34,329 nt of DNA from Collodictyon triciliatum (GCA_043381765.1 JBHJMP010000899.1:1-34329); one strand, 5' to 3'. Positions 3,389-34,329 are shown, counted from the first letter of the stretch. The notes: generated from the letters alone by a model not told the origin. Numbers and translations are program-made.

Positions 3389-6300
3389 ATGTCGTCGCCT
3401 CTTTTCGTAGCCGTCGATGTTGGGACCGGAAGTGTTCGGGCTGCCATATTCGATCTGTGTGGAAGTCGCCTTGCTCTTCAAACCGAGGCCCTTAAGACAT
3501 GGAACGACACTCCGCTTCACTATGAGCAGTCGTCCGAGGATGTTTGGAGCAAGTGTGCTTTGGTTGTCCGAAAGGTGACTCTTCTTTCTCGGCAGAGGGC
3601 GTTCCATGATGTTTTCATTGCCCAGCCACTCATCAAAGGCTCGTGCTTCGTTTAAGGGCACATTATTCTCCTGTTTTGTTTAAACAAGAAGGTTAAAAAG
3701 AAGGTGATGCATGCTGAGATTCACCCATATAATCATCATATGATAAGTGTGTAGAATCAGTCCCAGAAGCTCGAGATCTCGTGGTCGGTGTAGGTTTTAC
3801 TGGTACATGCTCACTCGTTCTACTTGGTGATGACAATAAGCCTGTTTCTGCATCTCTAGATGGTTCCAGCGACAAAAATATTATTTTGTGGTATGTTTAA
3901 ATTAATTGTTCATTTTCGCGTTTGCTCTCTCCCATGCGCTCCCATCCCGCCCCTTTGTATGGCATAACCTCGCTACACTTTGAATCGAATAAAGGAAAAA
4001 AAATTAATTGTTCATTTTAATTCACTATCACAGAAGACATATTTGCGCAAGGCTAATTGATTATCATCATTTTCTTGTTCTTTTTCATTTTCTTCTTGTT
4101 CTTGTTGTTCTTGTTGTTCTTGTTGTTCTTGTTGTTCTTGTTGTTCTTGTTGTTCTTGTTGTTCTTCTTTTTTCTTTTTCTTCTTTTTCTTCTTGTTCTT
4201 GTTCTTGTTCTTGTTGTTCTTGTTCTTGTTGTTCTTGTTGTTCTTCTTTTTCTTCTTTTTCTTCTTCCTCTTCATCACCATCATCACCATCACCATCATT
4301 ATTGTAATGGAGTTGGATGCTAAGAATGCAATCCTAGGATATATGCCCTTGTTTCATCTGTCTCAAATCTATGATTAACAGGATGGACCACCGAGCAATT
4401 AACGAGGCCGACGAAATCAACGATTCTGGTCACGAACGACTACGCTTCCTCGGTGGCAAAATATCACCTGAGATGCAAGTGCCAAAGATACTATGGCTTA
4501 AGAGAAACATGCCCCACTCTTTTGCGTCTACGAGGCACTTTTTTGACCTCCCAGACTTTTTGTCATTCAAGGCCACTGGGTGCCATAGCCGCTCTATGTG
4601 CACAACCACATGTAAATGGACTTATCAACCAGTAGACACGAGCACACGTGAAGACAAAACACTGTTTGGTACCGAAGGCTGGAGTGACTCATTTTTTCAA
4701 ACGACAGATCTTTCAAACTTTGTTGACGATAATTACGTCCGAATCGGCTCCCAGGTTTTGCCCCTAGGGTCTAAAATGGCATTACCTCTGCATCCGACTG
4801 TTTCCGACATGTGGGGTCTTGGAAGACAACCTGTATGTGTGGCAGTTTCGTCTATAGATGCACACTCGGGAGGTATTGGCGTCCTCGGAGTTCATCCTGC
4901 AGCCACGCCCAATGAAAGGGTGGATGAGTTGCTCCTTTCTCAAAAATTGGCTCTGATATGCGGGACGTCAAACTGCCACATGGTAGCATCCAAAGAGCCC
5001 AAATTTGTGCCGTAAGTATACAAAATAAGAATTATAATATCAATAAAATAAATATTAACATCTAAATACATAAATGCTTTTGTATCTTGCTTTATTTTTT
5101 TTTTATTGTGATAAAGACGAATTTAATCAATTTATGATAACGACTATAATAATTAAAATAAAAAGACGCTATAATAGCTAAAATTTAACTTCTTCAATAT
5201 GTAATATATTTAATAGTGAATTCTTAATGAGCCATCCTTCATATACCCAATCCAAATTGTAAGATTTATTGAAACCCATTCATTTGAGGATAGAGGTGTA
5301 TGGGGACCTTACTTTGGCGCTATGATTCCAGACATGTGGCTCTCTGAGGGTGGCCAGTCTTCATCGGGTTCCCTCATTCAACACATCATAGATGTTCATT
5401 CTGCCAACACCATCTTGTCGTTCGAGGCAGCAAAGCTTGGAATTCACCCGTACCAAGTGCTTAATGACAAAATCAAGCAAATAGCTGAAAATAAGCCTGT
5501 AACCTGTCCAGCCTTTCTCACTAAGGAAATTCACGTTTGTAATATTAGCTTCTGCCCCTGAGAATCGAATTTACCCTCTCACTTCTCTAGCAACACTTAA
5601 TTTTCTCTCTGTATTATTGTATTTGCCATTCTCTCTAATCATACATTTACACAAATTTCCATAGTGTTTGCCTTACTTCCATGGAAATCGTTCGCCGATA
5701 GCTGACCCGTCTCTGACTGGAATGGTATTTTAGAATGACTATTTAACAGACCAGAAAATGGATCTGTTCCTCTTTTTTTTCCCCTCCTTCAAATTGATTA
5801 ATATAATCAAACTGGTCAATTAATAAAAACTAAACAAAAAAATGACAGTTTTGCGGTTTGACCTTAAATGAAGGTATTGATGATTTAGCAATTAAGTATT
5901 ACTGTGTGGTACAGGTTTTTTTTTTGGATTTATCAATTATTTGATTATTTACTACAACTATGATTATTATGGTTAATTTAATTATTGTCCTTATTATTAT
6001 TTTTATTTATCTTACTGATTGTCTGGCGGTTAAATAAAGTCTAACTTGTTCTAGTATACTGTTTTCATTTAATAATATCAATTTTTATATTACCTAGGCT
6101 TTGGCATATGGCACGCGCCACATAATTGAGGCCATGAATGATTCTGGGCATGATATCAAAGTAAGAATATTTCCGAAAAAAACAAAACAGGAAAAAGGTC
6201 CATCGTTTAATAACCTACACTCCAACTAAATAATGTTTTCTACATTTTTTTCGAAATCATTCGGTATTGCCATTCGGTTTTCTTAACAGGTTATCGTCGC

Positions 6301-7438: not shown

Positions 7439-9332
7439 ATGTCCTTCGACGTTCAGCAGCTATTCAAGACGCACGCAAAGGCCGATCAGCATACGATTGA
7501 CCCAGCCAAAGGCCGCTCCTCCACTAGAGACCCAGCAGAGACGCCACGTCACAAGCCTTTGTTTCACTCACACGACTCGCGTTTGCCGCGCTCACCGTTT
7601 GGACATATCGCCTCAACACAAAACAAGCACCCAAACTCATTTCTTAAAGCTTCTCTGGTTCACGAACGCGAAGGTGAAAAAGTTTCTCTTACTGCCGATG
7701 TGATAACTCGCACTTGCCCAGACAACAGCGTAGACCCTGCTCGGCGGTCTCCGTTCTTGGCCAAGATACAGAGAAAGAGCTTAACACAGGCCCATCAAAT
7801 AACCCAACGAGCCAGCCCGCCTTTCTCATCACCTGCGTCAGATCGGCCTCTCAATCCCGATAGCTCCATGTCACTTTTCAGAACAACTCCAGAGACTTCA
7901 TTCGGGTCTAGTTTTCAGAAAAGGTCTCCCTTTGGAAGAATGTGTCCATTAACCAAACCCCTCGTGGGAGTTACCAGAGAGATATCACATAGGAAAGCAC
8001 TTTTCCCTCCAAAACTGAAACTGCATGGTATTACCTCGCATGAGTATCATAAGGATTCCAGAATAGATGCCGAATCTGAGTCCGACATGAGTATCATAGA
8101 CACTGCTGGGGAGTTTAATCAGGCACAGACACAAAGTCACCAGTGTTTGCATATACCGTACAAAGCAAATACCCCAATTCGCTCGGTTAGCTCAATAAAT
8201 TTACAAATCGCTGAGGAATCCGCAAATGACCTGCTGGACATGCGCTCTGAAGAAACGGAAAAGGGAATGGTGACCCAGAGAGCCCCATCAATACTCCCGT
8301 ANNNNNNNNNNNNNNNNNNNNNNNNNNNNNNNNNNNNNNNNNNNNNNNNNNNNNNNNNNNNNNNNNNNNNNNNNNNNNNNNNNNNNNNNNNNNNNNNNNN
8401 NNNNNNNNNNNNNNNNNNNNNNNNNNNNNNNNNNNNNNNNNNNNNNNNNNNNNNNNNNNNNNNNNNNNNNNNNNNNNNNNNNNNNNNNNNNNNNNNNNNN
8501 NNNNNNNNNNNNNNNNNNNNNNNNNNNNNNNNNNNNNNNNNNNNNNNNNNNNNNNNNNNNNNNNNNNNNNNNNNNNNNNNNNNNNNNNNNNNNNNNNNNN
8601 NNNNNNNNNNTTTTGTTTCAAGCTGACGTGAATAATATGATAGCAGGAATAAGGACGGTGAAAATATTAGCATGACCACGTCAGCTGCGCTATCAGCGGG
8701 CCCAAATACCCACAACCAGTCAATCCGCTCAGAGAATAACGATAGGCCGATAGGAGACGAGGAGGAACACTGGAGTAAGCAGAAATCAGTCCATGCGACT
8801 TCTTGCACAGACCAAATAAAAATTGGTCAAGATTGCCGCATTATATCTCAAGAGACACGGTCGCGTTTCAGTAAGTCTAAGATTGGTGCTTGAGGAAAAG
8901 GAACATATCAAATATTTTTCTTCAGTTTTCCTGAAATACTTGTGTTCCTTCGCAGGTAAGGGCGAATTTCGCCAACCTATTGTCACTGATGCGATGGTGA
9001 GAATTTCTCTGTACTCGTACCAAATATTTGTATGTGATCTTTATTTTACTTCATTTCCTTTTCTCCAGGTCGACTTATACTATGCAGATATATTCCAAGT
9101 TATTCGTACAAAATTAGCAAAAAGCATAAAAAAATACTCTTTGAAGAAATCAAACCCCAAGAAAATACTGAAACGCCTTATTCTGAAACATGTAAGGCTT
9201 TCCACGACTATATGATTGATTTAAAAAATGCCGTTATTAATAAGTTTTTTGTTTTTAAATTAAATTAAATTAAATTAAATTAAATCGATACTCAATTTCA
9301 CTCATCACCCGCAGGATTCTAAAGGTATGTGG

Positions 9333-11582: not shown

Positions 11583-14500
11583 ATGGAAACGGAGAAAATT
11601 GAGCGGCGGCATACGCGTAACATTTGAAAAAGACATAATTAAATGATGATATCTCATTCTCTCATTCTTTCCTATTTTCAATTCAAATTTATATTCATGT
11701 ATACGCGGTATGATGTATTTTCCTTTTGAAATACATGTACTTTATTAGGCTCTTCGATTCAAAACTTAAATTCCACGTTTAGGTGCTGTTATAATAACAT
11801 CTTGGTTGAATATTCGAATTAATATATGCAGTAGTTTTTTTCGTTTTTTTTTTCCGTTTTTGTTTTGTGTTTAAGAAAGAAAAACATATTTTTATGTTGT
11901 GACATTTTCCTTTTCATGTTTTTGTCCATAGGAATACGATACTATGCTCTTCATCACCCTTGCTGGGACTGAATCTTGAAGTTAGACACCCAATTAAATT
12001 TCCTTATGTTTACTGATTCAATTGGTTAATCACTGCTCTAGTATAAAATTCATGGAAAAAAAAAAAGAAAAGAACCCAAAACCAACTATTTATTCGTCTA
12101 GGACGTGTTAAATCCCTATATTATTAGCACACTTCGAAATGAGGAGATCAAAAAGTTGAATGATATCTCTTTTGGGGTATGATCAAATTAATTTCATTTT
12201 ATCGCCTCATTGCACTCATTCAGATTATTTTTTTTTTTATTCTCTCTTCTCATAAAACGAGGCAAAATTTTCAACACAACATAGATTCAATCCCTTGTTG
12301 AAGAAATGTTCACTTGTCCTATCATTTATAAGTCCTTAGTAGAGGATTGGGAGTCATTGATGTGGGCCTTAAAAAAAGGTATATATCTATTATCACTAAA
12401 ACAAACAATAAATCGGGCTTCCTTTAGGTCTCACCCTTTCTTAATATTTTATTTATTCTCATACTTTATACTCAAAGGCATGTATATATTTTTGAACTTC
12501 ATTCACCGTAGGGTACTTTGATAGAACCTTAAACTGGACTAAAATTTTCGAGAGACGTCGACATACCCATCTAAAAGAAAAGCATCGCCAGGATAATATA
12601 CAGAAGGTTTTATATAAAAGATCCTATAATTAGCAGAGCTTTAAAATTAAACAAATCATTCTTCATACTATTTGCACAAAATTGAAAGGAAGAATAAAAA
12701 TTCGTCATACTGTTTGAATTGTTAATTATTTTTTTTTAATAAAATGACTATCCTTAATACTAGACCTCTTTTTATGAAGCTTTTCGAGAATGGCAGAAAA
12801 CTACACCCAGTTTCAGGAACGTCTATTATGGTACATAAATTGGACGTGTCCTTTTCTTCCTTTTCTTCCTTTTCTTCATTTTCTTCATTTTCTTCATTTT
12901 CTTCCTTTTCTTCCTTTTCTTCATTTTCTTCATTTTCTTCATTTTCTTCATTTTCTTCATTTTAATTATTAACTTTTCGTATTTGATAAAACTGATTATC
13001 CTCTCATATATTGACAAGATCATTTTTTGAAAGCAAAGTTTAAACCTGACACTTTTATATAAAAACTCATTGGTGCTTTTTTTTTTTAACTGAATAGACG
13101 GTTCCAAGATCTGGGTAGATGTGTCGAAAATTCCTCGGGCTTGTGTACTGATAGAGAATTCCAACTCATCCGAGAATGAATCCAGTTCCAGTGAAGCGCC
13201 CCCAAATCATAGTGAATTAGGACTGAGTTTGATGCCAGTAGAACCTGTTCAATCTCATGAGAAAAGCATAGTATTTACCGATGGGTTATTTACACAGCTC
13301 GAAGGTTCCCCTTCTTCAAGTAGACCTCTGCGCTCACTTACATATTTTAATTGATTAATGAAAGTTTTTGAATTGGTCTCTTTCCTATCGAGCAACAATC
13401 CATTAATTAATCTAGATTTCAAAATATGCTCAGGATATGGAGAAACTCATTTAATGCCTCACGACAAAATTATGCAGTGCGTTCGTGAAGATATCATCTC
13501 TGCCAGTAATCTCATATAGATACAACCACATATTTTTTCTTATCTTTTTGCCTCTAAGATGGTTTAATTCCCATTTATTATTACTAAGATTTTTTTTTGA
13601 AACCCCCCTCTAGGTTATCAGCAAAATTTGAGTCAGCTGCCTCTCTTAACCGCACATGAACATCTATCAGGAATATACGACCTTGATGATATTCTCTATA
13701 ATCAACACCAGACTATCGATATTGGTCCGCCAATAACTGATGAAAATCATGAAAGAATGAATTTAGATACTATTGCGTATAAGCCGATTATATCTCCGCC
13801 ATTAGTTCCATTTGATGAATTTCTTTTGGGGCTCAATATAGTTACAGAAGAGGCGTTATTTCCACCCGGCTTAGGTACTACTCAATCCAATGCTGCTGAA
13901 TGCATGAGACATCGGCATGAAAAAAATACTCATACAAATGTATCTGCATCAACTCATCATGATTTGGATCCAGATATCGACTTGTCAACATCCCTGATTG
14001 AAAATTCCTGCTTTGTTGTTCCAGGTGATATCACGAAAAATATTGTTTGTCTAAACATAAACTCTGACATATCAGATCGAATTGGCCACGGTGAATCAAA
14101 GTCCAAAATATGCACTGGAGAAGCACCAAATCATGAGAATATAAGTGTGACATATCCTGAACAAATTTTGATAAATCCCTCAAGTGAGTTGTCTGCAAGG
14201 ACACCTTCAAATATAATAAGGCATAAACATTCATCCCATGCAGATGGAGACATGGCTGATTCAAACACTGCGCAAATATTATTACCTTCTGTGCCCAAAC
14301 CGATTGTAAGTATTCTTATGCCTGAAAAAATGGGCTGTCCCCTAGAGTATGAAAGTGATATAAATATTCTAGATAATCATGTCGTAGTGGCAAACAACAC
14401 AGCTCAGCCTAGCGCAATACTAGCTTTGGAACCTTCCAACGAAAAGATTATAGAGATTACGAATTTACTTCCATCTATGCATGATGTCACCAGAGATGCG

Positions 14501-17037
14501 ACTATGAACGGTGTCAGTCACCCTGCGCTCATCGAATCGCATGATATGCACCTTTCTCATAGGGGTGTAGAAAGAGAAAACCAGGATATTCTCCCAACCA
14601 CAGCCCCTTCATTTCGTTTGGAAATATGTGCCGGTCAAGATGATTTTGAAAAGCAAAGCACATTCGACTCGAACTCATTTTCATTCGAGCATATGTATCC
14701 ATCATCAGCTCCTGCTAGTCCGGTGTCAACGGTTGCAAGGGAGACGACCTCCGGAAGTCCAGTCAAGAGGATTATACTCTCAGAACCACAGCCCAGAAGG
14801 ATATTGCTACGGAAGTCCAAACTTACTCAAGTTAAAAGAAATGCCTCAAACTATTTCCAGACACATTTAGAGAACTCGAAATGCCACACTGAAAACATAC
14901 ATCAAGTTAGACAAATAGTAGAAAAAACCCATGATGAAAAGGTTTTTGACTGTGATAGAGAAGGGTGTTTATCACCGCTAGCGACAGTAAATACTTCGGG
15001 ACAATTAAGCCCACTGATGGAGCGATCTATACCATCACATGGATATAACAGAGAAGTATTTTCGGCATTTTCACTGAAAGAGGAGCAAAGCAAATACGAA
15101 ACGAAATCTAAATGTGACAAACCATGTGCTGCAGAAATTAATCAAAAACGTTTAGGTCATAAACGAAAATCCTTTCATTCAAACTCAAAAGCAGTCAAGA
15201 TATTGGAAAATTATTCACAAAAGAGCTCGGAGAAAGTATTTGTGCCAAGCCAACCTGAGAATTCTGACTATCCCCCTACAAAAATGACCAGGCAAGGCAG
15301 GGTTGTGAAGATACAAGAGATTCACGAGTTGAGATATGATGGTTTGGTAAAAGATGCAGGATGCGAGATTGATAGATCGACAGTTGAAAATGCTGGTGAC
15401 GTGGTTGGTGACTACAGAAAAGTATATGAGTCCAATCATACGAATTCGTGTAACCACTTTATTTCGTTCAAATCGAGGGCTATATTTTCTGCTGATGACG
15501 CATCTGAAAATACTGAGGTATCAACCATGCTTAACCCGCTTCGCATTTCATCGCCCAGGAATAGTTCAGAGGTAAATAGGGATGCAACAGAAGGCTTGGT
15601 TGTATTGGCGTCAGATATTCCCTCCCCAATTTCCCTGGCGCCTTCTATAGAAGAGGCAGTAGAAAATCCAAAATCAAATATAGAATGTCCAAATGCACAC
15701 AACTTGTCAGACTGGACAATTAATCATATAATCAGTTCTGGAGAAGATACAGAAACGCAAGTAAATGTTAGATATCCAGCACTTTTTGAAAAAGCCCATA
15801 CATCACCCATTTGTGAGATATTGAATCAAAAGTTAATATCCGCTGGATACCCAACCCACGCTAGTTTAGATGAAAAGGGGGCTAATATTGATGACCAGAC
15901 AAATAGATGTGATTTTACAACACCAGCGGAAGCAAACGAGGAAATCGAGAGTGCTACGTCGTTATATTCAGATCCTCTAGACTTTCTCTCGAGGCCCTAT
16001 AATCAAAACCCAGACAAAAGTGATCTAGATAATGCAAAGAATCTGCATAACAGTACATTTTGTGAGACCAAAGGTACAGAAATAATGATAATGACCATCA
16101 TATTAACGAATTATTCATATAATTTATTTTTTCAGTCTTCCATCTGACACATTCTTTTAAAATAATGTTAATATTCGGTATGTTATTTATTTTTTATTTC
16201 CCTGTTTTCTCTGTTTTTCCCTTTTCTTGTTTTGTTTTGTTTTGTTTTGTTTTGTTTTGTTTTGTTTTGTTTTGTTTNNNNNNNNNNNNNNNNNNNNNNN
16301 NNNNNNNNNNNNNNNNNNNNNNNNNNNNNNNNNNNNNNNNNNNNNNNGAAATAACTAACCCATCTGATGAAGGCCAGGGACAAATCGAGAACATTTTAGA
16401 GATAGATCAAACCAAGGAATGTAGATCCTTCAAAATATTTTTTTCCCGACTTTTTCGGCCAATCCAGCAAGCCTTGGAATCAAATAGCGAATCGAAATAT
16501 ACAGTTGGTTCAGTAGCAAAGGAGCAAGATTTAGTTCCTTCTGACGCAGGATACCAATCAGCCGTCGATGGAGAGAATTTGGTAGTCGCACGTCAGCATG
16601 AGGAAAGAAATGCTAATATAGGTACTAAAGGTCATGATATCACGGGTGATTCTTTAACACTTGTGAATGCATCCCAAGAGACAACCGACGCAATAGGCCA
16701 TCCCAACACGTCTGCACACGTTGAATTAAATGGAGCTTTGCCATATGTCGAAATGCAGGAAAGACACGTGAGCCGCTCCATAATAACATCAGGAGATGCC
16801 CATCAGAATGAGGAGAAAAATACGCGCATTTTGGAGGAAACGCAAATGAATCAAGCAGCCCCTGGATCACTTGAGAAGATCTCTCCACGTGCCGATGAAC
16901 GAACGGGGATGAGTGCAGAGCCAGCACCATCGCCCGTCCGTCCACAAATCTTGGTGTTCGAGGAAGAGATTCGCACCCCGGTATCCTCTCAGGAGAAGGA
17001 TAGTATGGAGATATACAGCACATCGTGTTCTAAATAG
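11583..17037 (+). CDS. DEUBAD/ASXH-domain-like protein (ASXL/NFRKB-type deubiquitinase adaptor) with a long disordered C-terminus, ~1,297 aa; exons 11583-11616, 11749-11782, 11932-11980, 12102-12176, 12285-12378, 12512-12606, 12764-12830, 13098-13304, 13416-13505, 13614-16073, 16349-17037
   Basis: Spliced model is in frame (3894 nt, assuming no exon inside the gap at 16278-16347). N-terminus ILCSSSPLLGLNLEDVLNPYIISTLRNEEIKKL...DWESLMWALKKGYFD...SFYEAF resembles the recalled ASXH pattern SPLxxxNLxxLLN..L..EE..L / FxxxLxxGxFD / FFExYY. The CDS is well supported; the domain call is moderate. Confidence 0.65.
12851..12961. repeat. (TTTTCTTCC/A)n 9-mer intronic repeat
   Basis: Visible tandem repeat. 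Confidence 0.95.
16227..16277. repeat. (TTTTG)n intronic microsatellite abutting an N-gap
   Basis: Visible. Confidence 0.95.
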
Positions 17038-17475: not shown

Positions 17476-20400
17476 ATGAACCCGCCCAACACCACATCAG
17501 CGCCCACAACAACAGCACCAACAACAATAGCAGCAGCAGCACCACCACCAACAACAACAACAAACACAACAACCGCGGCTCCTTCTGCAAACACAACAAC
17601 AAACGCGGCAACAGCCGTAGCAGCATCGACAACAACCACAGCCACAGTCCCGGGAGTCACATTCCTGCGCCAAAGCGGCGGAGGGAGTGGAGCCACCAGT
17701 GGCGCAAACGGACTGACCAGCACGCAGCGGCCGGCAAACACAGCAGGCCGCGGAGGCGCCGGGGCGTATAGCCTTGCGCAGATTCAGCCATTTGCAGCCA
17801 ACAGTGCGCTTCAGGGCATTAGTCCGTCTCTCAACCTGGGCAATGGAGCTCATATGTCCGCCTCTACATCTGCATCTGCACCTATATCGACATCTGCTTC
17901 GGTCTCGGCATCTTCATCTACATCAGCCTCTGCCTCGGTCTCTGCTGTCCAAGCATTTCCGGCCGGACCGCGTTCCTCTTCCGCAACCATGGCCCAGTCT
18001 CGACCCACTGTGCTGCCCACGCAGCCGGGACAGAGTCTCGCATCGCATGTGTCTGGGCCAAATCGCCCGTTGCAATCCCAACTGCCTGCTAATCCAATTC
18101 ATGAGCTCTCACGCTTGCAGGCCACTGGCCCTTCACCCCGGCAGCTGCCTCACGGCTCTTCGGGCGCGACACACATGGGAAACACAGGGCCGATGCAAAT
18201 GCCGGTTCCCATGTCGATGTCGATGCCGATGTCGATGTCGATGTCGATGCCAATGTCAATGCCAATACCGCGTTCTGACGATTCGAAACTATTTGGCGTT
18301 GCTTCGGGGGTCGCTGGTTTGAAGCCCTCCGTACAGTTGCTGGGTGTCCAAATGTCTGCAAACTTTGTGGGTACGGTGATTTGATGATATACGCTGTTTT
18401 TCGTTTTTTTTTTTTTGTTGTCTTTTGTTGTTTTTTATTTGTTTTTATTTGTTTTTATTTGTTTTTATTTGTTTTTATTTGTTTTTATTTGTTTTTATTT
18501 GTTTTTATTTGTTTTTATTTGTTTTTTATTTGTTTTTTATTTGTTTTTTATTTGTTTTTTATTTGTTTTTTATTTGTTTTTTATTTGTTTTTTATTTGTT
18601 TTTTATTTGTTTTTTATTTGTTTTTTATTTGTTTTTATATTGTACGTGTACCAATTTTATGCGCCTGTCATGTCATTATGTACATTCAATTTGATTCGCA
18701 TCGTTTTTAAACTGCCACCTTTGAATCAAGGGAAGTGTTCGTACCTGCTCTTTTGAACCTTTGTTCATATATGGAAATAGATCCTGAAGCTTTACAAGTC
18801 AATAACCAAGGCAGGTCGCGCTGTGTGGTCATCATCATGGATACATCTTATAACATGAGTCAAATGAGCAAATACTGGGAGAACGTTATAAACGCCTTAA
18901 TTGAGTTAGTTAAATTATTGTTATTATTTTACAAATCAAATCAAATCAAATCAAATCAAAACAAAACAAAACAAAACAAAACAAAAAAATACGAGACAAA
19001 TTTAAACAGGAAGACATTAACGGAAAAAAAAGCGAATATACATTCTCTTTCCTTTACCCGCAAAATCCTTCTGTGTCACATTTCATCAATAAGAATGATT
19101 GATTGTTTTATTGAATGCTTATGGCACAATTTTTAGCGTTGTACCATTTTCAAATTCGCCCTCTCATCTCTTCCGGCTTTATAATTCTTATACTAATTTT
19201 TATGACCCACTTCCTTTTCTCTTTTCTCTTTTCTCTTTTCTCTTTTCTCTTTTCTCTTTTCTCTTTNNNNNNNNNNNNNNNNNNNNNNNNNNNNNNNNNN
19301 NNNNNNNNNNNNNNNNNNNNNNNNNNNNNNNNNNNNNNNNNNNNNNNNNNNNNNNNNNNNNNNNNNNNNNNNNNNNNNNNNNNNNNNNNNNNNNNNNNNN
19401 NNNNNNNNNNNNNNNNNNNNNNNNNNNNNNNNNNNNNNNNNNNNNNNNNNNNNNNNNNNNNNNNNNNNNNNNNNNNNNNNNNNNNNNNNNNNNNNNNNNN
19501 NNNNNNNNNNNNNNNNNNNNNNNNNNNNNNNNNNNNNNNNNNNNNNNNNNNNNNNNNNNNNNNNNNNNNNNNNNNNNNNNNNNNNNNNNNNNNNNNNNNN
19601 NNNNNNNNNNNNNNNNNNNNNNNNNNNNNNNNNNNNNNNNNNNNNNNNNNNTTTTTTTGTCGTTAATACATTAACTCAACCGAAGTAATTACTTTGTTTC
19701 CAATTGATAAGAGTTAGTTTATTCATTCAGAAATTTGTGAATAATTTGAAATTTTCTGGATCAAATCGCGGTGGTATACTACTGGCTGATGCCTTAGGGG
19801 ATGCACTACAAGTACCTCTAATAATAACTCTTTGAATATATTTGTCATGGATTTATGCACTTACCACCACCACCACCACCACCACCACCANNNNNNNNNN
19901 NNNNNNNNNNNNNNNNNNNNNNNNNNNNNNNNNNNNNNNNNNNNNNNNNNNNNNNNNNNNNNNNNNNNNNNNNNNNNNNNNNNNNNNNNNNNNNNNNNNN
20001 NNNNNNNNNNNNNNNNNNNNNNNNNNNNNNNNNNNNNNNNNNNNNNNNNNNNNNNNNNNNNNNNNNNNNNNNNNNNNNNNNNNNNNNNNNNNNNNNNNNN
20101 NNNNNNNNNNNNNNNNNNNNNNNNNNNNNNNNNNNNNNNNNNNNNNNNNNNNNNNNNNNNNNNNNNNNNNNNNNNNNNNNNNNNNNNNNNNNNNNNNNNN
20201 NNNNNNNNNNNNNNNNNNNNNNNNNNNNNNNNNNNNNNNNNNNNNNNNNNNNNNNNNNNNNNNNNNNNNNNNNNNNNNNNNNNNNNNNNNNNNNNNNNNN
20301 NNNNNNNNNNNNNNNNNNNNNNNNNNNNNNNNNNNNNNNNNNNNNNNNNNNNNNNNNNNNNNNNNNNNNNNNNNNNNNNNNNNNNNNNNNNNTTACCCTT

Positions 20401-24682: not shown

Positions 24683-24886
24683 ATCCAGGTCCAAGGCCTC
24701 TCTTAATTGTATATGTCCTGATACTCAACTATTGGACTTGAACTTGCAAAGGCACTGTGTATAACAAGCCATTCATAAATAAATCAGGCTTACAATACAT
24801 GCTTATATATCATAGTCACGCCCACAAGAATAAGACCAAAGAAAAGTCTCGAAGGACAAGAAGCCAGATCGAAGTACCCTGCCAAG

Positions 24887-27800
24887 ATGCAAGACCGCAG
24901 CCTTGCGCAAAGTTCGTTCCAGTTTTCCCAACGGGACGGGTCTCAGCGGCCCTTGTTGTTTGGTGATTTGATCTCTTTGATCCCAGAGGCCGAGGCCAGT
25001 GATAAACGAAGCCTCCTCCCAAGAGACCTCCCTTCTTACCTGAGCATTGAGTATCCAGTGACTAACCCGAACGTTTCGCCGATAAGCATTTCCTTTCGCC
25101 GCGGTGTGCAGCCCAATCGCCCGGTCTCTGTTTCCTCTTTTAGGTCCTTCTCGAGCCTTTCACAAGAGAACGAAATCCGCCCCACCATCGACACTCTGCC
25201 GGAGTTCTTTCAGCAGCGCTGCGTCGTTCAGATTCTGAACGGAAACCCTCGAGGCCTCGGCCAACAAGTGCGATATGGCCAGTTGGTTCAGTTCTTCCAT
25301 CCAACAAGTCGCTCATACCTGGCCGTCTCTGCTACACAACACGACACACTTATGATTCAGGCACACGAGACCCTGTATACCTACTTCCGCCTTTTGCCTC
25401 GCTTCAAGTTGAGAGAGGAAGGCGAACCAGTTCTTGCTGATGACGTCCTGATGATTTGCCCACACCAATCTAAATTGACTCTCGGGTATTCTGTCTCTAG
25501 CACAATGGAAAAGTCTATCCCTGGAGGTCGCAAGAGCAAACAGCTATCGGAAATGATCGAAGATGGCCTTCTCCCTTCAAATGTTATCCATGTTGGCCCC
25601 ACATCGCTCAAGTACGGCTGGAAAATCCATCGATTTGCATCTTATCGTGAAGACTCGGCTTCATTTGCCAAGGTTTTTTTTAAAAATAAATAATGTTATA
25701 TAATGGTGTAATCTATTACAGGAATAGTCTGATTCGGCTTTTATTTAAAAGGATTTGTCTACATTAGTCCATTCAAGTTTAACATACGATATACCATAGG
25801 GTGGAGATGTAATCAGAGTCATGCATGTTGAATCTGAGGGGCATGTGTGTTCCAAGGAGAGAAATGCATTCCTCTTCCAGTTAGAAAGCGACAGAACTAA
25901 TGACAGACCAGATTATGAGCTGCTGGATAATATCTCGAGTGCAAGGCGTGAATATTTTGACCGGCTCGTTGCTTCCATAAAAGGTGAAAAGAATGTCCAG
26001 CAGAAGATACGGTCGTGGAGGAGCGAAATAGATGCCGTTGCATATGTGAAGAAACAGAATAGCGACGCTGGACCGAAAAGTGTTCATTCAATGTGGCAAA
26101 TAGAGTTGGAGAACCCAGATACCGGTTCCCTGTTAACGCCATCAACTCCATTTCGGTTGAGACATTACCTCTGTAATAATTCCGCCACAATTGCTCGTCT
26201 TTTTGTTTTTGAACTATGCATTTTTTTTTGTTTGTTTGTTTGTGGATCCCGGTCTCAATCGAAACATGAAACAAATATCATGAGATAATTTGCGCACATT
26301 TTGAAGAATAGAGATCTAAAGCTCCGTTTATTTTCTCTTTTTTTTTCTTTTTACGAATCACTTGTTATTTGTGGATCACAATACAGAGGCTCATTTTACA
26401 TGATACTGTAGTGGTTCATACATTTCCAATCGTCTTCATTGTCATACTTGCTTTCTGCTTTTCTTTTTTTATCTGTCGGTCTTCACTTTTCCTTTTTTTT
26501 TAAAAAAAAAAAAGTAATCGATTTATACGAGAATCATGAAGGTCCAATGTAACTGAATTTTATCTTTCCTTCTTTTTCTCACAGCTGGTAACTACTTGAG
26601 TTACGATGTCTTGTCTGTACCCTCTGACCAAGAAGGGGAGGCTCAAAATGGGGCGATGAGTGGGCTGCATCATCATTCTCATGAGAAAACATTCGTCATA
26701 CACAACGGAATCAGATGCAGCGGTTGTGATAAGTCCCCTATTGTCGGACCAAGGTATAACTGCCCCATATGCCCTGATGTCAATTTTTGTCAGACTTGTA
26801 TAGAGGAAGAATTATATAGTCCCGCGCATCCCCTTCTGAAATTTACATTCGCTGTGAAGCAAATTCCAAAAATTCGTGTTCACATTCGTGACACAGAGAG
26901 CGGCAACATTCACAATCGTAATTGCACTGGGTGTGGCATTGCAATCGTCGGCACCTTATTTCGCTGCCTGGCATACAAATGTACTGACGTGTTCTGCGAA
27001 TCTTGTGAGCCCAAGTTTCCTCCAGCGCCAGGACATGTTTACCTCTTAGACAAATTCTCAAGACCGTCACATTCTCTACCTAATCATGAGAGCCCGCTGA
27101 ATCTTGTCCAGCCACTTTCAAATTTTCACGATAACACTCGGTGCGATGGGTGCTACCGCAAGTGCTTTGAAGGTGTTCGGTATCGTTGTGCATATTGCAT
27201 TGACTTTGACTTTTGTCAAGAATGCGAAGCCACCAAAACGCACATCGAGGGGCATACATTCGTAAAGCTCCCCTACGCGGTGGATAAGAACCTTTCACCT
27301 CTGAATTTCCCCATATCCGGTTTGCCTGTCCTATCTAAGAGGCTTCCAGGTGAACCACGCTGCAGCTGTACGGTGTCTGGATGCTCTGTTTGTGGTAAGG
27401 AAATTACTGGAACTTTCTTCAAATGTCTGACTCACAATTGTGACTTTGCTATTTGCGATACATGCGAGCTACATTATCATCCTCCAGGTGATGGGCAACA
27501 AGGTCATAATGTAACACATCTGATGCTCAAAGTCCGAGATGACATTAAAGTAGCTCCTGCTGATGACCATTTCCCAGAGGGTTCATTCAGAGCTGACTTC
27601 GAAAAAGAATCCCCGTGGAATGAAGGCGACTTTACCATCCGGATGACTGAGAAGGCATCTCCTGACACCCTTTTCACATTCGTATCAGAAACGGACTGTG
27701 ATGGGCTTCTCCCATTGAATGGAAATATTCGTCTTCGTCACCACATGTCAGATAAATGGGTCACAATTCAAGACCTCGTCGGTAAAGTTCCAGCCGACCG

Positions 27801-30800
27801 AGCGGATCGCACAAAGGGTAAAGGTGACCGTAAAAGGAGCAAATACAGGATGGCATACTTGAACGTGAACCCAGAGTACAGAGAACAAGATTTGTTCACA
27901 TTCGAACTGGCAGCCCCTGATGAATTACATACGACAAACTTGGTATTGAGTCAGCTGCATCTTTTTGAAAAGTTTATATTCAAGGATGTTCCCAACCTGG
28001 AAAAGGTTTTAGCTATCGCTCCTGAGAAAATACAAACGTGGAAGAAGCAAGAAATGGACCTCGTTTTCCTTCCTTCTGAACTCATATTTAAGTATTTGAT
28101 CAACATGTGTACAGGTAACTAGGCTGACAAAACATATATTTGAATAATTATTGTATTTACTGGTATTTTATTCGTAAATTACTCAACTGTTCAGAGACAT
28201 AGTGATTTATATTATATTCATTTATATTTCTCATACAATGGCTAGCGAACCAAAGCCAACATCTCTACCATCCTGCACAAAATTGAAAGGAAGAATAAAA
28301 AAAAAAATTATATCTCTCATATTCTCCGGTGTAGATGACAAGGAAGAGGATTCTCTAAAACGAGAGGGAACTCCTTTGAAATGCCATCAGAAGTTGCTAC
28401 ATCACTGCTGGATTGTCGATGCATTGATGTATGTTTACCAAAAGGTAGAGCCCATGAAACCTAAAATCAAGGATAATCCCTATCTGAAGAAAAAAGTCCA
28501 TGAAAGTATGATTTATCTTTCTCGTTTGCTAAAGCAACTTTGCAAAGGGAATCCATCCATATCTACTTATGCAGGATTTTGGATTGGAGATATATTTTCA
28601 TACTTAGGAGATAGCAAAGGCGATGATGCTTACGGATTTGCAAAAGTTTTGAAAGAAATGTGCCTTGAAAACTCAAAATTGGCGCAATATATTGACACTT
28701 TTGAAGTATCTTCTACCTTAAAACTCCTCCACGAAAAACCATCTCACCTGTATTTGGATTTCCTGTCTAATATATGCATTGTGAACAGAAGAGTGAATGA
28801 AAAAAACCAGAGAATTGTTCGGGATGTCATGTTATCCCCTGATTCTGAATTCTCGCAATTTAGCTATTTCTTTGATTTAAAGATAATTAATGGAGTTCCG
28901 CATATATTTCCTTGTCCGGGCACCCAAATATCCTGGAATCAAACAAATTTGGTAGAGTGGGGTAGAGACCCATCCAACATCGAAAACATCCAATATTTCA
29001 CTTCGAGCCTGAGACTTCTCTCGTCAATTTGTCAGGTAGAAACCACTTTTACGATTTTTTTTTAAAAAAAAAAAGTAGAGAAAAATCAGTTAACCTTAGA
29101 CTCTACAAGTTGCAACGTCTAAAATTAAGGCGTCATTTAATTTTTGTTCTTTTATTTCTAATAGGGAGAAAACAAGGCATCCCAGAAACTCGTTCGTAAA
29201 ATTCTTAATTTGGAAACTCTTTTATGCTGTTTGGAGACAGTCGTTGACTTAGGGCTGGGGACATATCCAATTAGTATTACATACGCTTTACTTGACTGCG
29301 TTTTGCATATCCATTATATTTCACAAAACAGAAGAACACTTCCTGTAATTCGTTACATACGCCAGTATGGAAAGCAGACAATTAAGAGCAACTTACTAAA
29401 CTATTCGACAATAAAGCGAAAGAAGGATGCTGTTCAACTATTAGACTCATCCACGCATAGAATGCGCACAATTGTTGAGAAAATTCTTCGTCAGTTTCCC
29501 TCAAGATATGATAGCGCTTGCTTTGAAACAAAAGGAACACTTCCGTGCATTCTTATTGTTTCGTTAAAAATGATTATTCAGATGATTGATTATGGTGAAA
29601 TATGCGATTCTGGTAATTTGTCTTCTGAAAGAAACATCAAACTACAAGAATACCTATATGATATTTTCCAAAGTACTACGTGGGCTCGCTACATAGAGGA
29701 AGGAAAAAAACATAAGCAGAGCCCTCATCACAAGATTATTTACATGTTTGACGGTTATAATGGAATTCCCATGGTCAGTTTTCATACCTCCAACATAATA
29801 ACATACCCTATTAATTTCTTTAAAAAAAACTCGAATAATTTTACATTTAAGAATTAATTCAATCCAATTAACCTTTTTTTTTCTTTAAAAATATTCTTTT
29901 ATATTTTTATCTCTATACTGGCCGTCTACCCTTAAAATAGTGTGGAGCAAAGATGCATATTTTCCAGCTTCTTAACAAGCTCGTAGATGTTCATATGGAC
30001 TGGCAAATATCAAGGGTGATTGAAAGCAACGGAGATATGAATTTCATATGGGACAATCCATTTCCGTACTATAAATTTGACAAGTTTTTGGGCTTTATGA
30101 TGGAGCTTAGCTACTCGCCATTTCCATTACTCCGAAACGAACTCGTTCGGACGATGAATCGATTAGACCAACATCCCAAAGAACTACTCGATCACTTGAA
30201 GCAAGTGCAGATTATACCACCCGAAGAAGAAAATGCATTTATCGAGCTCAACAATTTAGTTGCTCAGCTCAAGGAAATTTTAGAAAAGAAAGACTGGGTT
30301 AGCCATGAAGATGAACTTACTTCACTACAGAACAGAATGACTGAAGTAGAAAAGCATTTGATAACATCCCAAACGTGCCTATGCTACAAACAGTACATGG
30401 TATCTCATCTGAGAATTCATGATGAGGTCATTTACCCCGTTCTCAAAACTGTCTTGAAGCTTATTGAAGACATTGATGACGATGCCACTAGCGATATGCG
30501 CTCATTGCTGTTTGAATCTAACATGGGCTCAGACGGAGACTTATCAGACTTTAGTGATATTGGTGCCGAGGTTTATGAGAGTGAAGAAGACTTCGAAGAC
30601 GAGGAAAACGATGTTGATGAAAACGAACTTGACCATCAGGAAGGCAGACTGCAAAGCCAATCCAGCATTCAAGACCCTGTTGTACTAGTTTTTGAAAAGC
30701 CTCAGCTTCTATCACACGTCAGCTCGCTATTTATCTCAGATGACCTTATTCCAGAATCCGCACTATCACCAGCCTCTATTAACGACCACGGCTCTGGAGT

Positions 30801-33800
30801 GTTTAATGACCCTTTGGCGGAATCCACAGGTGGTTTTATAATATTGAACGAAGATAAAAGTGAGTCAACCTCTCCCAACGTATTGCAAATCGAGACACCT
30901 GAAGTCGGAGATGATACTGCTTTTCAGAGCTTTAATCGGAGAATATCTCTTAAAAAAGACAACCAATCGAATCAAAACGAACAAAAACTGCGCGAGTCAC
31001 TTCTTGATAATTCATCAGATCTTTTTCAAGATGAAGTCTCAGAACTTGAGCTAAATTATTCAAATACCTTAATCAGAAAAGATTCTATGTCATTACCACA
31101 TGTTCGCTTGGCAGAAAATTCAAGAAAGAGTTTTCGTTTTAATGATTCTATCAATATTCAGAAGAGAAACAGCACATCACCAGGAGTATCATACAGAAGA
31201 AGCGAGTCTAGCTACACTAGTTCATCCATTAATGACAGCAAGAGAAGAATGTTACAAAGCATTTATGAAACATGCTTTAGAATACTTGCTCTTCAAGTGC
31301 AGAAAAATGAAAAAATCTCTCGTGTCATATTCAACCAGTATGACGTCTATGAAAGCTTCATTCGTCCTTATTCTGCTGGAGTCGTAGATTTTCTTGAAAG
31401 CTTATTGGCTGAATATTCTATGGTGCGAAATATGGATTCAAAGATCCTCTCGCATATAACAATACTAATGATAAAATCAATTACGGATGATATAAAAAAG
31501 CCACCAAGTGAACAAACCTCTGTTGGACTGCGTTATATCAAATTCCTGATGCGTGTTGCCATAGTCGACATGAAACCGTGCGATGAAAACCAAACGGTCA
31601 TTACCTCTATCGTATTCAGTTCCAATATAGAGAGCCAATTCTTCCTTCAAAATTTACTCGAGCTTCAAGTTTATGACTATAATGCAGATGAGATAACCGC
31701 GCCTGACCAAGAGAAGCTTTTCATAAGCCGCCTGGAAAATGTTGATGAGAAGATTGGATTATATCACTCTCATCTTGTCGAACTCTTATCTTCCTGTTGT
31801 TTTGGTGTTTGTGCTTCCAGTAAGAATGCTTGTATATCTAGAATACCTAAAGAAACCATAGTAAAAATTGTTTCCAACCAATCCATCTACATAAACATCA
31901 GGAAAGTATATCTGAAATTTCTCTGTAGCTTGCTGTTTGCATATGAAGCTGTTCTTGATTTTGGAGAGGATGGCGAAAGTGATGACACCAGCGATCAAAA
32001 TTTAGCCAGTGAACCCAGCTCATTCAATAACACGCTGAATGGGCAAGGGGAGTCAACCAAGATTATAGAATTTCTCAAGGCTAATCAGAGTGACTTTATG
32101 CAAATGATTCACTCTTTTAATCATTTCTTGACACAAAAATCCGACTTTGAAAACCCAACAAATGTTTCCAATGCACAAACTTCGGTATTCATATTTCACT
32201 CGATTCCATTCGCTATGAGACCTATCCACACTACGATAGATGATGCCTGGATGAGTCAATTTCCCAGAAACCCTGTATCATCGTGGTCTGAAGAAGACGT
32301 TCGTTTTTTCATCGAGGTGGCTATATTCATACGTGTTTTGGGATTCTATTTGGATGATTCTGGTCTATCAGGAATGCGACAAGCGGCAATAGAGACTAGT
32401 AAACTCCTTACTGTGACATTTTTATCTGCACCAGATGCTGAATCCTTAAGGGTTGTTCCTTTCTTTTTAAATAAGATTTTTCAGACCCTTTGGAGGGGAA
32501 AAAGGCCCGAAATTTGGCAAGATTTTGCAGATAGGCAAACTGGATTTCTGGGAAAGATTTCATTGCTTCTTAATTCAGGAAATCATAATTCTATAGAAAT
32601 GACTCCTCGAAAAACTTCCACTACTTCAACAACCGATACTATCCCTAAAGAGCTAATTGAATGGGATTCCAAAATTAAACAGGTGCAATCTTTTATCTTT
32701 GAGAGAATACTCTCTATGAATTCTGAGTCAACAGGACTATTTAATATTCTTTCAGGCCAAAATAACGTCCCAAAAAAAAGAGGCATCACTTGTGAAGATA
32801 GACTCCTTCTTGAAGAAGAAACCCCAGGCTATAATGAAGTCGAAAATCAGATCGAATTTAAAAGTATTTACTTTGGAGATGTAACCATGGAGCTGAAATC
32901 ACGCTTGTTTGCTATCATATCTAGCGTGAAAGATTTGAATGAGCCTGGTATTCTAGAATCGAACCAAGATTTCGCTTTTATCTTCAACATATGCCAGCAT
33001 CTCCAAACGACACGAGATATTGGTATCACCTGGAGTCCCTGGCTATTCCAAGTATTAACATATGTCCTTTACTGCTGCCCAACGGACGTGGAATCTGACT
33101 CTCTTATGGGGGAAAAGACTAAAAGTCCACATCAGCTTGACGGATTCTGCTTGACAGGACTTTCGACCTTAACGCAGATGCAACTATTGTATGTCAAACT
33201 TCAAATACCTGAAACGATCCTCAGTCGCTTGAAGTTTTGTCAGGGAGGATGTCCTCAGCGCTCATCAATATTCAGACTCGGCATTTATCTTCTCAAAGGA
33301 GGAAATAAAATGGTTCAGAGTAGTATCTCAGATAACATCAAACAAGACCCAAAGAATGCAGTCATAAGAAAAATTCGCAGTGGCTTTTTAGAGGCCATAG
33401 AACATCTTGGGGGTTATAGGGCAATACAAAACAAGAACGGAAAAGGAGCGGTAACTACAAGAACCCTTGTGGGAACTAGAAGAGATGAAAAACAACAAGA
33501 GATTGTCCAATTCATTACAATATCCCTACGCTTTATTCAACTTCTATGTGAAGGCCACAATCATGACATGCAAAACCTCCTACGCAACCAGCCAAAGAAA
33601 TCTGTTGACCTTATATCTGAAGTGGTTGGGTTCATATTGTTCTTTCAAGAAGACATGTGGGGTAAATTACCCAGAGGCGCGCAGGGATTAGATATTTACA
33701 CATATACTACCTTTGAAATGCTCTCCACTATTATTGATATGGAATTACTAACCCAAGGATATAGAACGATGACAGAGTTTATGCAAGGGCCTTGCCTAGA

Positions 33801-34329
33801 TAACCAGAAGGCCATATTGGATGCCAAGGCATGTGATTTTCTCGAGAAATTCCTCCGATATTTCGACCTAAGTAAAACATTCGGTTGTGGGCAAATATTG
33901 ACTCCTGTCGAATTTTCATCTAAACTGCATCTCCCCCTTTTAATGGATGAGTGGAACCTTCAATTAAATCAGCTTCAAATGAGCGTGTTGGAATTTTTGG
34001 TTGGATTGATGGAAGGTAATCACGAAAACGGAACACGCATTATTGATGAGATATGTCATATCGTCTTGATTGATAACATGACCTTTCATTTTGAACGTCA
34101 TCACGCTTTTGATAAGGAACAACACGACGTTTTCAACAAACCAAAGCTCAGTTTTACAAAGACTCAGTTAGAATCCCTCAGAATTCCTTCTATTAGGGAA
34201 AGAATGTCCCCATCGGTTCTAGTACACGTAAAGCATATTGACCTCAGTAAGCTCGAAAGTGTCGTCGAGGTCGATTTCCGATATCGCAAATTTGTATACG
34301 GTTTGTGGTCTCGAGTCCATATCATGATT
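24887..34329 (+). CDS. ITPR: Inositol 1,4,5-trisphosphate receptor-family Ca2+-release channel (ITPR/iplA-like), 3'-partial; exons 24887-25672, 25800-26172, 26585-28114, 28335-29035, 29165-29773, 29941->34329 (~2,796 aa in the window)
   Basis: Suppressor/MIR motifs VRYGQLVQFFHPTSRSYL, YFRLLPRFKLREEGEPV, WKIHRF..KGGDVIRVMHVESE, SMWQIE..FRLRHYLSGNYL, NIRLRHHMSDKWV. RIH motifs HQKLL and YLDFLSNICIVNRRVNEKNQRIV. RIH-associated motifs ILRFIQLLCEGHNHDMQNLLRNQ and TMTEFMQGPCLDNQKAI. The final exon appears open to the window edge (hence absent from the ORF track) and the transmembrane region is not reached. Confidence 0.92.
26701..27535 (+). other. Four tandem ZZ-type zinc fingers encoded within IP3R exon 3
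   Basis: HNGIRCSGC..IVGPRYNCPICPDVNFCQTC..HPL; HNRNCTGC..IVGTLFRCLAYKCTDVFCESC..GHV; HDNTRCDGC..EGVRYRCAYCIDFDFCQEC..HIEGHTF; CSVC..ITGTFFKCLTHNCDFAICDTC..HNVTHLM. Confidence 0.92.

Follow-up and report, generated by a model that had tools for sequence, protein, structure and literature searches.

A zinc-finger block within beta-trefoil 2 of a divergent IP3R/RyR-family gene from Collodictyon triciliatum

How does a block of ZZ-type zinc fingers come to lie in the N-terminal, ligand-binding region of a gene from a calcium-release-channel family, and what might it do there? The question is raised by a 34,329-nucleotide stretch of DNA from the protist Collodictyon triciliatum (GCA_043381765.1, JBHJMP010000899.1:1-34329), referred to here as the window, in which the + strand of 24887-34329 carries the 5′ part of a gene of the family that comprises IP3 receptors (IP3Rs) as well as ryanodine receptors (RyRs). 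Eukaryotes release intracellular Ca2+ mainly through these channels, in which the N-terminal trefoils convert ligand binding into gating. A preliminary description of this DNA had proposed that an IP3R-family channel here carries four ZZ fingers within its ligand-binding beta-trefoil. We find that the finger block is in frame, transcribed and retained in spliced RNA, and that the gene belongs, as a highly divergent member, to the IP3R/RyR superfamily, in which the four-finger block occupies a loop in a manner seen in no relative or paper searched.

The finger block and the gene that contains it

The block comprises 288 residues (~290; 26683-27546) with four Cys/His fingers and lies within exon 3 (26585-28114), which encodes in turn the end of a beta-trefoil-2 strand, a linker, the four fingers, a second linker, the remaining beta-trefoil-2 strands and the start of the helical region. 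The exon boundaries read AG|CT (26583-26586) on the 5′ side and G|GT (28114-28116) on the 3′ side, and the codon split between exons 2 and 3 (T+CT) supplies the Ser of RHYL-S-GNYLS. RNA-derived contigs of four public runs from two studies (X1-X4, of which X3 and X4 are freshwater metatranscriptomes) were aligned to 24700-34329, and all statements on RNA refer to the contigs listed; freshwater, lake-water and aquaculture metatranscriptomes with shares of 0.05-0.13 (X5-X11) do not enter into them. Three GT..AG joints were found in the two runs that have spliced contigs, X1 and X2, and all three match predicted exon boundaries: 26172 to 26585 in an X1 contig with 0 mismatches, 28114 to 28335 in both X1 and X2 (28112 to 28333 in the raw alignment, with the cut moved by +2), and 29773 to 29941 in X2. 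The X1 contig that crosses intron 2 spans from exon 2 to 26768, inside the first half of the first finger (ZZ1), and therefore one RNA-derived molecule links the beta-trefoil to ZZ sequence. Contigs from all four runs tile 26585-27425 and 27538-28112 at 99-100% identity, with 0-2 mismatches each (26712 onwards), and among the contigs listed the zinc-finger block is skipped by none of four joints.

These results bear out the proposal that 26585-28114 is a single continuous exon, since its coordinates are exact and joints are present at both ends; they likewise bear out the proposal that the fingers are in frame and share this exon with IP3R-family sequence, given the open frame and the RNA joint between exon 2 and ZZ1. 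The transcripts across the interval thus have splice joints at both ends and, among the contigs listed, none that removes the block. Three features speak against an artefact of recent date: there is no DNA repeat within exon 3, the GC content at third codon positions (GC3) is 0.43 in the block and 0.46 in both flanking coding stretches, and the two halves of the block are 29% identical. None of the four runs of N in the window falls inside the gene.

The gene model was obtained by delimiting exons at GT..AG sites, read by eye in the stop-to-stop frames of the + strand, and then joining them. The six exons give a stop-free coding sequence of 8388 nucleotides (2796 codons) that starts with an ATG at 24887 and continues past the last letter of the window; the placing of introns 1 and 4 relies on GT..AG sites, frame and homology only. 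Exon 1 (24887-25672, with its donor at 25673 predicted only) encodes the N-terminus, which aligns by MAFFT with the N-termini of P0165-P0167, and beta-trefoil 1, with a Pfam match to Ins145_P3_rec (PF08709) at 25262-25498 (31.7 bits, with the cut-off at 23; E 1.1e-7). Exon 2 (25800-26172) encodes the first strands of beta-trefoil 2 (GGDVIRVMHVE ... FRLRHYL) together with an extra insert of ~50 residues. Beyond exon 3, exon 4 (28335-29035), whose acceptor is backed by the joint in X1 and X2, contains the first RIH domain (PF01365; 28337-28837, 56.3 bits, E 4.1e-15). Exon 5 (29165-29773) is delimited by frame and GT..AG sites, its donor being backed by the X2 joint and its acceptor at 29165 predicted only, and exon 6 (29941-34329, continuing past the window, as does an X2 contig) contains a second RIH (31210-31647, 25.6 bits, E 1e-5; cut-off 22.3 bits) and RIH_assoc (PF08454; 33505-33852, 74.4 bits against a cut-off of 28.5, E 7e-21).

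A Pfam scan of the gene frames found no SPRY domain or RyR repeat. The MIR domain (PF02815) is below its gathering score on exon 2 (13.4 against 25.6 bits) and has no match on 27547-28113, in a scan of single exons only, the domain being divided by an intron and by the insert. A search with the RIH_assoc region gave eight distant IP3R/RyR matches, and in a local phmmer search the non-ZZ parts of the product match only the eight IP3R/RyR proteins. Ins145_P3_rec, two RIH domains and RIH_assoc are together the signature of IP3R/RyR calcium-release channels, and on this domain content the gene is assigned to the superfamily, as the preliminary description had claimed in naming an IP3R-family gene. 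The set of Pfam domains that it expected is found in part: Ins145_P3_rec, RIH (twice) and RIH_assoc are present, MIR stays below threshold, and ZZ passes for two of the four fingers.

Where in the fold does the block sit? In a MAFFT alignment of the spliced N-terminus with four IP3R-like relatives it lies in the variable loop of beta-trefoil 2, between strands FRLRHYLSGNYLS and NIRLRHHMSDKWV, at a point where the loop of the relatives is short; FRLRHYLSGNYLS is aligned with YRFKHLATGHYLA of the Drosophila IP3R, and NIRLRHHMSDKWV with YVRLQHICSNTWV. Beta-trefoil 2 resumes at 27664-27906 (DTLFTF ... NIRLRHHMSDKWV ... DLFTFE), as located by a custom profile and by MAFFT against SYVRLQHICSNTWV of the Drosophila IP3R. 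The profile, made from the beta-trefoil-2 region of four relatives and searched against the spliced protein, matches in three colinear pieces (model positions 1-20 on residues 263-282, 38-85 on 348-393 and 158-207 on 767-827) that total 22.0 bits (E 3.7e-6); in 500 shuffles the score went no higher than 3.4 bits. The proposal that MIR/beta-trefoil sequence stands both before and after the fingers is thus upheld by the colinear profile matches and by MAFFT.

Structure-based and sequence-based searches with parts of the product gave fainter leads. In the ESM Atlas, the C-terminal part of exon 3 gave weak leads of beta-trefoil type (MIR, fascin, ricin B and FRG1; scores 0.89-0.92), and the whole of exon 3 gave no usable match. 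Because identity to animal IP3Rs is so low, single exons fall below significance against the PDB: in a sequence search with single non-ZZ exons none of the matches was significant (Lys-gingipain 0.07, cytidylate kinase 0.22, ITPR2 0.4). The loop that holds the block may correspond to the SI splice loop of IP3R1 (residues 318-332). The existence of an S1 splice site in the IP3R N-terminal fragment is mentioned in PMC3610541.

The fingers, their pockets and their relatives

The 521-codon frame that contains the fingers (26557-28122) matches the Pfam ZZ family (PF00569, gathering score 21.4 bits) at 5.1e-19, with two stretches that pass. ZZ1 (26683-26862; CSGC ... CPDVNFC) and ZZ3 (27109-27288; CDGC / C-x-D-x-D-x-C / R, with pocket residues of the p62 type) are canonical and match on their own, at 38.9 bits (7.7e-10) and 38.6 bits (9.6e-10), respectively. 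ZZ2 (26893-27069) and ZZ4 (27349-27546) are variants with the pattern C-x2-C ... C-x4-C ... C-x2-C, followed by a His in ZZ2 and by several in ZZ4, so that the second knuckle is C-x4-C and not C-x2-C; neither matches Pfam ZZ alone. Six Cys and one Gly are invariant in all four fingers, and in phmmer alignments both variant fingers fall on canonical ones with the pattern CxxC...CxxC...CxxC, ZZ2 in P0033 and ZZ4 in P0016. Among the 152 ZZ-rich proteins matched, 17 contain the C-x4-C variant, as counted by a simple pattern. ZZ1 and ZZ2 are colinear with ZZ3 and ZZ4 (29% identity over 125 residues, E 9e-19), and the block is therefore a two-finger unit duplicated long ago. As judged by homology, the four fingers are related to one another, two being canonical and two variant, and their order is that of a duplicated (ZZ, variant ZZ) pair. 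Hence the claim of four ZZ fingers stands for homology, and for ZZ1 and ZZ3 in canonical form; for ZZ2 and ZZ4 it needs the qualification that they are variants.

An AlphaFold2 (AF2) prediction from the single sequence of the whole exon-3 product had a mean predicted local distance difference test score (pLDDT) of 29.5, and nothing was drawn from that model. The block was modelled by AF2 with a 40-row alignment of multi-ZZ proteins, zinc being absent from the model. This gave four folded modules, with a mean pLDDT of 78.3 and a predicted template modelling score (pTM) of 0.35; three linkers have pLDDT below 50 (residues 60-72, 134-144 and 203-227), and block-mean pLDDT is 68-94 in ZZ2 (model residues 71-130) and 75-92 in ZZ4 (231-288). 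The block is thus predicted to form four separate zinc-finger beads on flexible linkers, as beads on a string. ZZ1 (model residues 4-58) superposes on the p62 ZZ (7r1o) with Z 8.1 and a root-mean-square deviation (rmsd) of 1.3 over 53, and on the Nbr1 ZZ in its Ams1 complex (7dd9, Z 6.4) and Ape4 complex (7dde, Z 5.3). ZZ3 superposes on the ZZ of HERC2 (6ww3, Z 8.7 over 59) and KCMF1 (Z 7.7), with rmsd 1.3, and on that of dystrophin (9c3c, Z 7.8). For these two fingers the ZZ fold, a cross-brace with two zinc sites, is clear. The variant fingers gave weak matches, the best for ZZ4 being the Ada2 ZZ (Z 5.3, rmsd 3.3-4.5) and for ZZ2 a B-box and p300 residues 1171-1240 (Z 4.0-4.1). The best-matching solved ZZ entries, from p62, HERC2, KCMF1, PRT1, Nbr1, Mind bomb 1 and dystrophin, are titled as bound to peptide N-termini or protein partners.

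The similarity of ZZ3 to p62 extends to the peptide pocket. The p62 ZZ is reported to hold a free N-terminus through Asp129, Asp147, Asp149 and Arg139, each single mutation lowering the affinity ~30-fold (PMC6098011). Aligned with p62, ZZ3 pairs CDGC with CDGC, C-I-D-F-D-F-C with C-P-D-Y-D-L-C and GVRYRC with GTRYKC, and it keeps the equivalents of all four of these residues. In sequence searches ZZ1 and ZZ3 match HERC2 and p62 with E values of 2e-10 to 4e-9. The N-terminus-reading ZZ proteins p62/SQSTM1, HERC2, KCMF1 and PRT1 thus match ZZ1 and ZZ3 in both sequence and fold (Z 7.7-8.7). They differ in being soluble ubiquitin-ligase or autophagy factors with one ZZ per listed solved chain, whereas the present gene would place four in a membrane-channel subunit.

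From what source might such an array have come? The exon-3 product, compared with 1.84 billion representative proteins, gave 3371 matches at E <=0.001, the best 150 of which are ZZ-rich proteins of 27-48% identity. None is near-identical, and so the protein of this organism is absent from the collection searched. Among proteins of 892-2545 residues, a range that excludes full-length channels, two matches were found, both ZZ and neither an IP3R. By local phmmer with the non-ZZ parts, IP3R-like sequence is present in none of the 152 ZZ-rich proteins. A scan of metagenome contigs returned one locus (L001), a short, unrelated contig with a ZZ match only. Several of the matching proteins (P0010-P0017, P0033 and P0026) have tandem arrays of 4-8 ZZ fingers, spaced like those of the block and 33-44% identical to it, with colinear alignments over two to three fingers (P0033, 81 bits over ZZ1-ZZ3; P0016, 56 bits over ZZ3-ZZ4). 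Their partner domains are RING, PB1, NBR1 Ig or UBA and not IP3R-like sequence: P0014 and P0016 carry RING, and P0026 is NBR1-like (PB1, four ZZ, NBR1 Ig and UBA). A multi-ZZ array of this kind is probably the source from which a piece was copied into the loop.

Comparison with the channels themselves shows what is shared and what is not. Animal IP3Rs (the Drosophila IP3R, P0165; ITPR2, for example 12ad) have the same order of beta-trefoil 1, beta-trefoil 2, RIH, RIH and RIH_assoc, and the strands that flank the insert are recognisably the same; they differ in having no ZZ listed and a much shorter loop. The nearest relative found, P0164, is a protist IP3R-like protein of 3122 residues with MIR, two RIH, RIH_assoc and Ion_trans domains, which reaches 40% identity across 26% of the region used as query and shares motifs such as RLLKQL-KGNP, but lacks ZZ and has a short loop at the insert position. 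The RyRs (P0160-P0163) belong to the same superfamily (RIH, RIH_assoc, MIR and Ins145_P3_rec) and provide a precedent for protein-binding domains inserted in the cytosolic shell (SPRY, PF00622; RyR repeat, PF02026), although these insertions differ from the ZZ block in both the kind of domain and the site. PF00569 is listed in none of the eight IP3R/RyR relatives. Full-text searches, with InterPro not queried by architecture, found no paper that links a ZZ domain with an IP3R architecture; among those listed, the papers that mention both terms review the topics of autophagy signalling, protein acylation and Duchenne cardiomyopathy. Within the literature searched, then, the architecture is undescribed, as had been supposed.

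Is this nevertheless an IP3 receptor in the strict sense? We take the IP3-contacting residues of IP3R1 to be R265, T266, T267, G268 and R269; R504, K508 and R511; and Y567, R568 and K569. PMC13319452 assigns R265, R504, K508, R511, Y567, R568 and K569 to the pocket and states that the K508Q change abolishes IP3 binding. Against the Drosophila IP3R, in a divergent region where the alignment of the pocket is uncertain, the RTTGR loop is not kept, being aligned to V/K-K-K-Q-N or, by an alternative placement by eye, to F-Q-L-E-S, and the YRK triad is not kept, being aligned to N-P-S; animal IP3Rs keep both. The R-x-R-x-K-x-x-R motif is aligned to K-x-H-x-K-x-x-H, in which, of R504, R506, K508 and R511, only the Lys of K508 is kept. 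Since most of the IP3-contacting residues are not kept, IP3 binding is doubtful, and the gene product is probably a superfamily member that is not a classical IP3-gated receptor. To this extent the term IP3 receptor in the preliminary description is not supported in its strict sense.

Possible roles of the array

What, then, could four zinc fingers contribute to such a protein? The best explanation, to which we give a probability of roughly one half, is that this is the cytosolic part of a divergent IP3R/RyR whose beta-trefoil 2 took up a flexible, multivalent ZZ docking array. Some 290 residues, as two (canonical ZZ, variant ZZ) pairs, would have entered a long surface loop. Situated on the N-terminal gating region, the array would offer proteins a multivalent docking surface, amounting to 16 fingers in each tetramer should assembly follow that of the relatives. 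With its p62-type three Asp and Arg, ZZ3 would bind a free N-terminus, belonging to a partner or to a processed protein; the remaining fingers might add avidity or other contacts, and docking could bias the gating, placement or turnover of the channel. The sensor function and the apical position that the preliminary description assigned to the module are likewise suppositions.

Several points weigh against this explanation. The proposed function is extrapolated from homology, and channel function itself is assumed from family membership, the pore domain (Ion_trans) lying beyond the window end at 34329. The full p62-type pocket is found in only one of the four fingers, ZZ3: in ZZ1 the three Asp positions are occupied by S, D and N, with the equivalents of Asp147 and Arg139 kept, and ZZ2 and ZZ4 have no pocket pattern of the p62 type. 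The two variant fingers fail Pfam ZZ on their own, and their fold matches (Z 4-5.3) are within the stated noise range of the tool. ZZ1 and ZZ2 each have a single His after the last CxxC, so that their second zinc site may be incomplete. No relative with the same insert was found in the protein and metagenome searches, and conservation of the block, and with it selection, is therefore conjectural. As to the RNA, 27426-27537 has no coverage among the contigs listed, a gap that proves nothing by itself, and the X3 and X4 contigs are all exon-internal, so that DNA carry-over is possible for these two runs.

An array of this kind might equally serve to anchor or scaffold the channel with no effect on gating, tethering it to the cytoskeleton, a membrane or an autophagy- or ubiquitin-related factor, or cross-linking tetramers into clusters. 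The dystrophin ZZ, which holds beta-dystroglycan, and the Nbr1 ZZ fingers, which hold cargo enzymes, are models for such a role; ZZ3 superposes on the former and ZZ1 on the latter. The low-confidence linkers between fingers and the pTM of 0.35 likewise favour beads over a rigid part of the trefoil, and in sequence the block is closest to multi-ZZ arrays, which include the NBR1-like P0026 as well as P0014 and P0016 with their RING domains. However, in animal IP3Rs the domain that holds the insert position couples ligand binding to gating, and a large protein bound at that site would hardly leave the channel unaffected. No evidence presented here separates pure anchoring from docking that affects the channel, and we regard anchoring as a tentative alternative, somewhat on the unlikely side. 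It is more doubtful still that the array acts as a zinc or redox sensor, in which some 30 Cys/His zinc-ligand positions per subunit would lose zinc on oxidation or take it up as free zinc rises, and the resulting unfolding or folding of the block in the trefoil loop would tune Ca2+ release. The six Cys invariant in all four fingers are consistent with such a sensor, and the apparently incomplete second zinc site of ZZ1 and ZZ2 could make these fingers labile. Thiol reagents are also reported to regulate animal IP3Rs through cysteines of the IP3-binding core and suppressor domain (PMC3610541). The listed solved ZZ structures, however, are peptide- or protein-binding modules, none of them titled as a redox switch, and ZZ3 keeps a complete peptide pocket for which a pure metal sensor would have no need.

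Could the architecture instead have no function, the gene being a pseudogene or an assembly chimera, or the block being normally lost before the mRNA is mature? The window belongs to a draft assembly and contains four runs of N, splicing is not fully understood in that one contig carries an in-frame skip of 25375-25500, part of the block lacks coverage among the contigs listed, and no orthologue with the block was found. Against this, the frame is open for 2796 codons in a gene free of N runs, an X1 contig joins exon 2 to ZZ1 across the intron with 0 mismatches, the block is covered at 99-100% identity by contigs from two studies independent of each other, with no block-removing joint listed, and GC3 matches that of the flanks. 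We therefore consider this account very improbable. Returning to the docking array on the gating region, a bolder form of it is that the class of ligand has changed, most IP3-contacting residues having been lost, such that the ZZ array gates the channel in response to free protein N-termini (N-degron-like, arising from proteolysis or arginylation). This is speculative and we think it improbable. If true, the channel would answer the processing or damage of proteins directly with Ca2+ release from a store, and the gene would encode a peptide-N-terminus-gated member of the IP3R/RyR superfamily.

Some consequences follow whichever role applies. The variable loop of beta-trefoil 2 can hold ~290 extra residues, with four folded domains, in an expressed gene; it is a permissive site, which may be useful for engineering sensors into IP3R/RyR channels. 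The block suggests an input to regulation that the family is not known to have, in the form of zinc fingers whose relatives of solved structure recognise protein N-termini. Should the array affect gating, it would connect N-degron-type recognition, or zinc/redox state, with Ca2+ signalling in a protist lineage; should it not, the gene still clearly illustrates how domains are shuffled into a conserved channel. This architecture, unusual though expressed, has been seen in one organism, and its function is a proposal.

Transcript variants and neighbouring genes

The transcript contigs and the alignments also reveal features of the gene outside the finger block. Within exon 1, one X1 contig skips 126 nucleotides (25375-25500) in frame and with GT..AG ends. 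The skipped stretch is exon-like (GC 0.48), and its 42 residues contain most of the Ins145_P3_rec match (25262-25498). The skip, present in one contig only, could reflect splicing noise, or else an exitron or alternative isoform in which beta-trefoil 1 is disrupted. In the same contig, 66 letters 5′ of 24837 match nowhere in 24700-34329 and could be an upstream 5′ exon or leader sequence. The extra insert of ~50 residues in exon 2 (~25880-26040; TNDRPDYELL...SEIDAV), seen by MAFFT against four IP3R-like proteins and lacking in animal IP3Rs, lies at the position of the RTTGR IP3-binding loop.

Intron 3 contains a stretch of ~70 nucleotides (28238-28306) at which the summed contig depth is 323 in X1 and 464 in X2; 18 and 21 contigs, respectively, carry a T>C difference at 28266, and there are loose ends on either side. 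The stretch is single-copy in the window, has no match to Rfam families or tRNAs, and resembles a short element of high abundance, or with repeated copies, among the transcripts. Towards the 3′ end of the window, an X2 contig over 33409-34329 differs at 39 of 921 positions (~96% identity), as against 1-2 positions in those X2 contigs that cover the ZZ block, and this run may contain two strains or species, or a paralogue.

In the rest of the window, Rfam and tRNA scans found nothing. The four runs of N (8302-8610, 16278-16347, 19267-19651 and 19891-20392) are scaffold gaps, and translation of the intergenic frames near them gives numerous short simple repeats. An apparent stretch of intergenic DNA with 17% GC at 19-21 kb was rejected, being produced by the runs of N. 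The neighbours of the gene (1322-1804, 4338-5561 and 13601-16147) include a Kelch-repeat frame, two exons of an FGGY pentulose kinase and an 848-codon open frame with no Pfam match. The best match of the FGGY kinase is a transcriptome protein of 49% identity, and most of the matches listed are bacterial or metagenomic.

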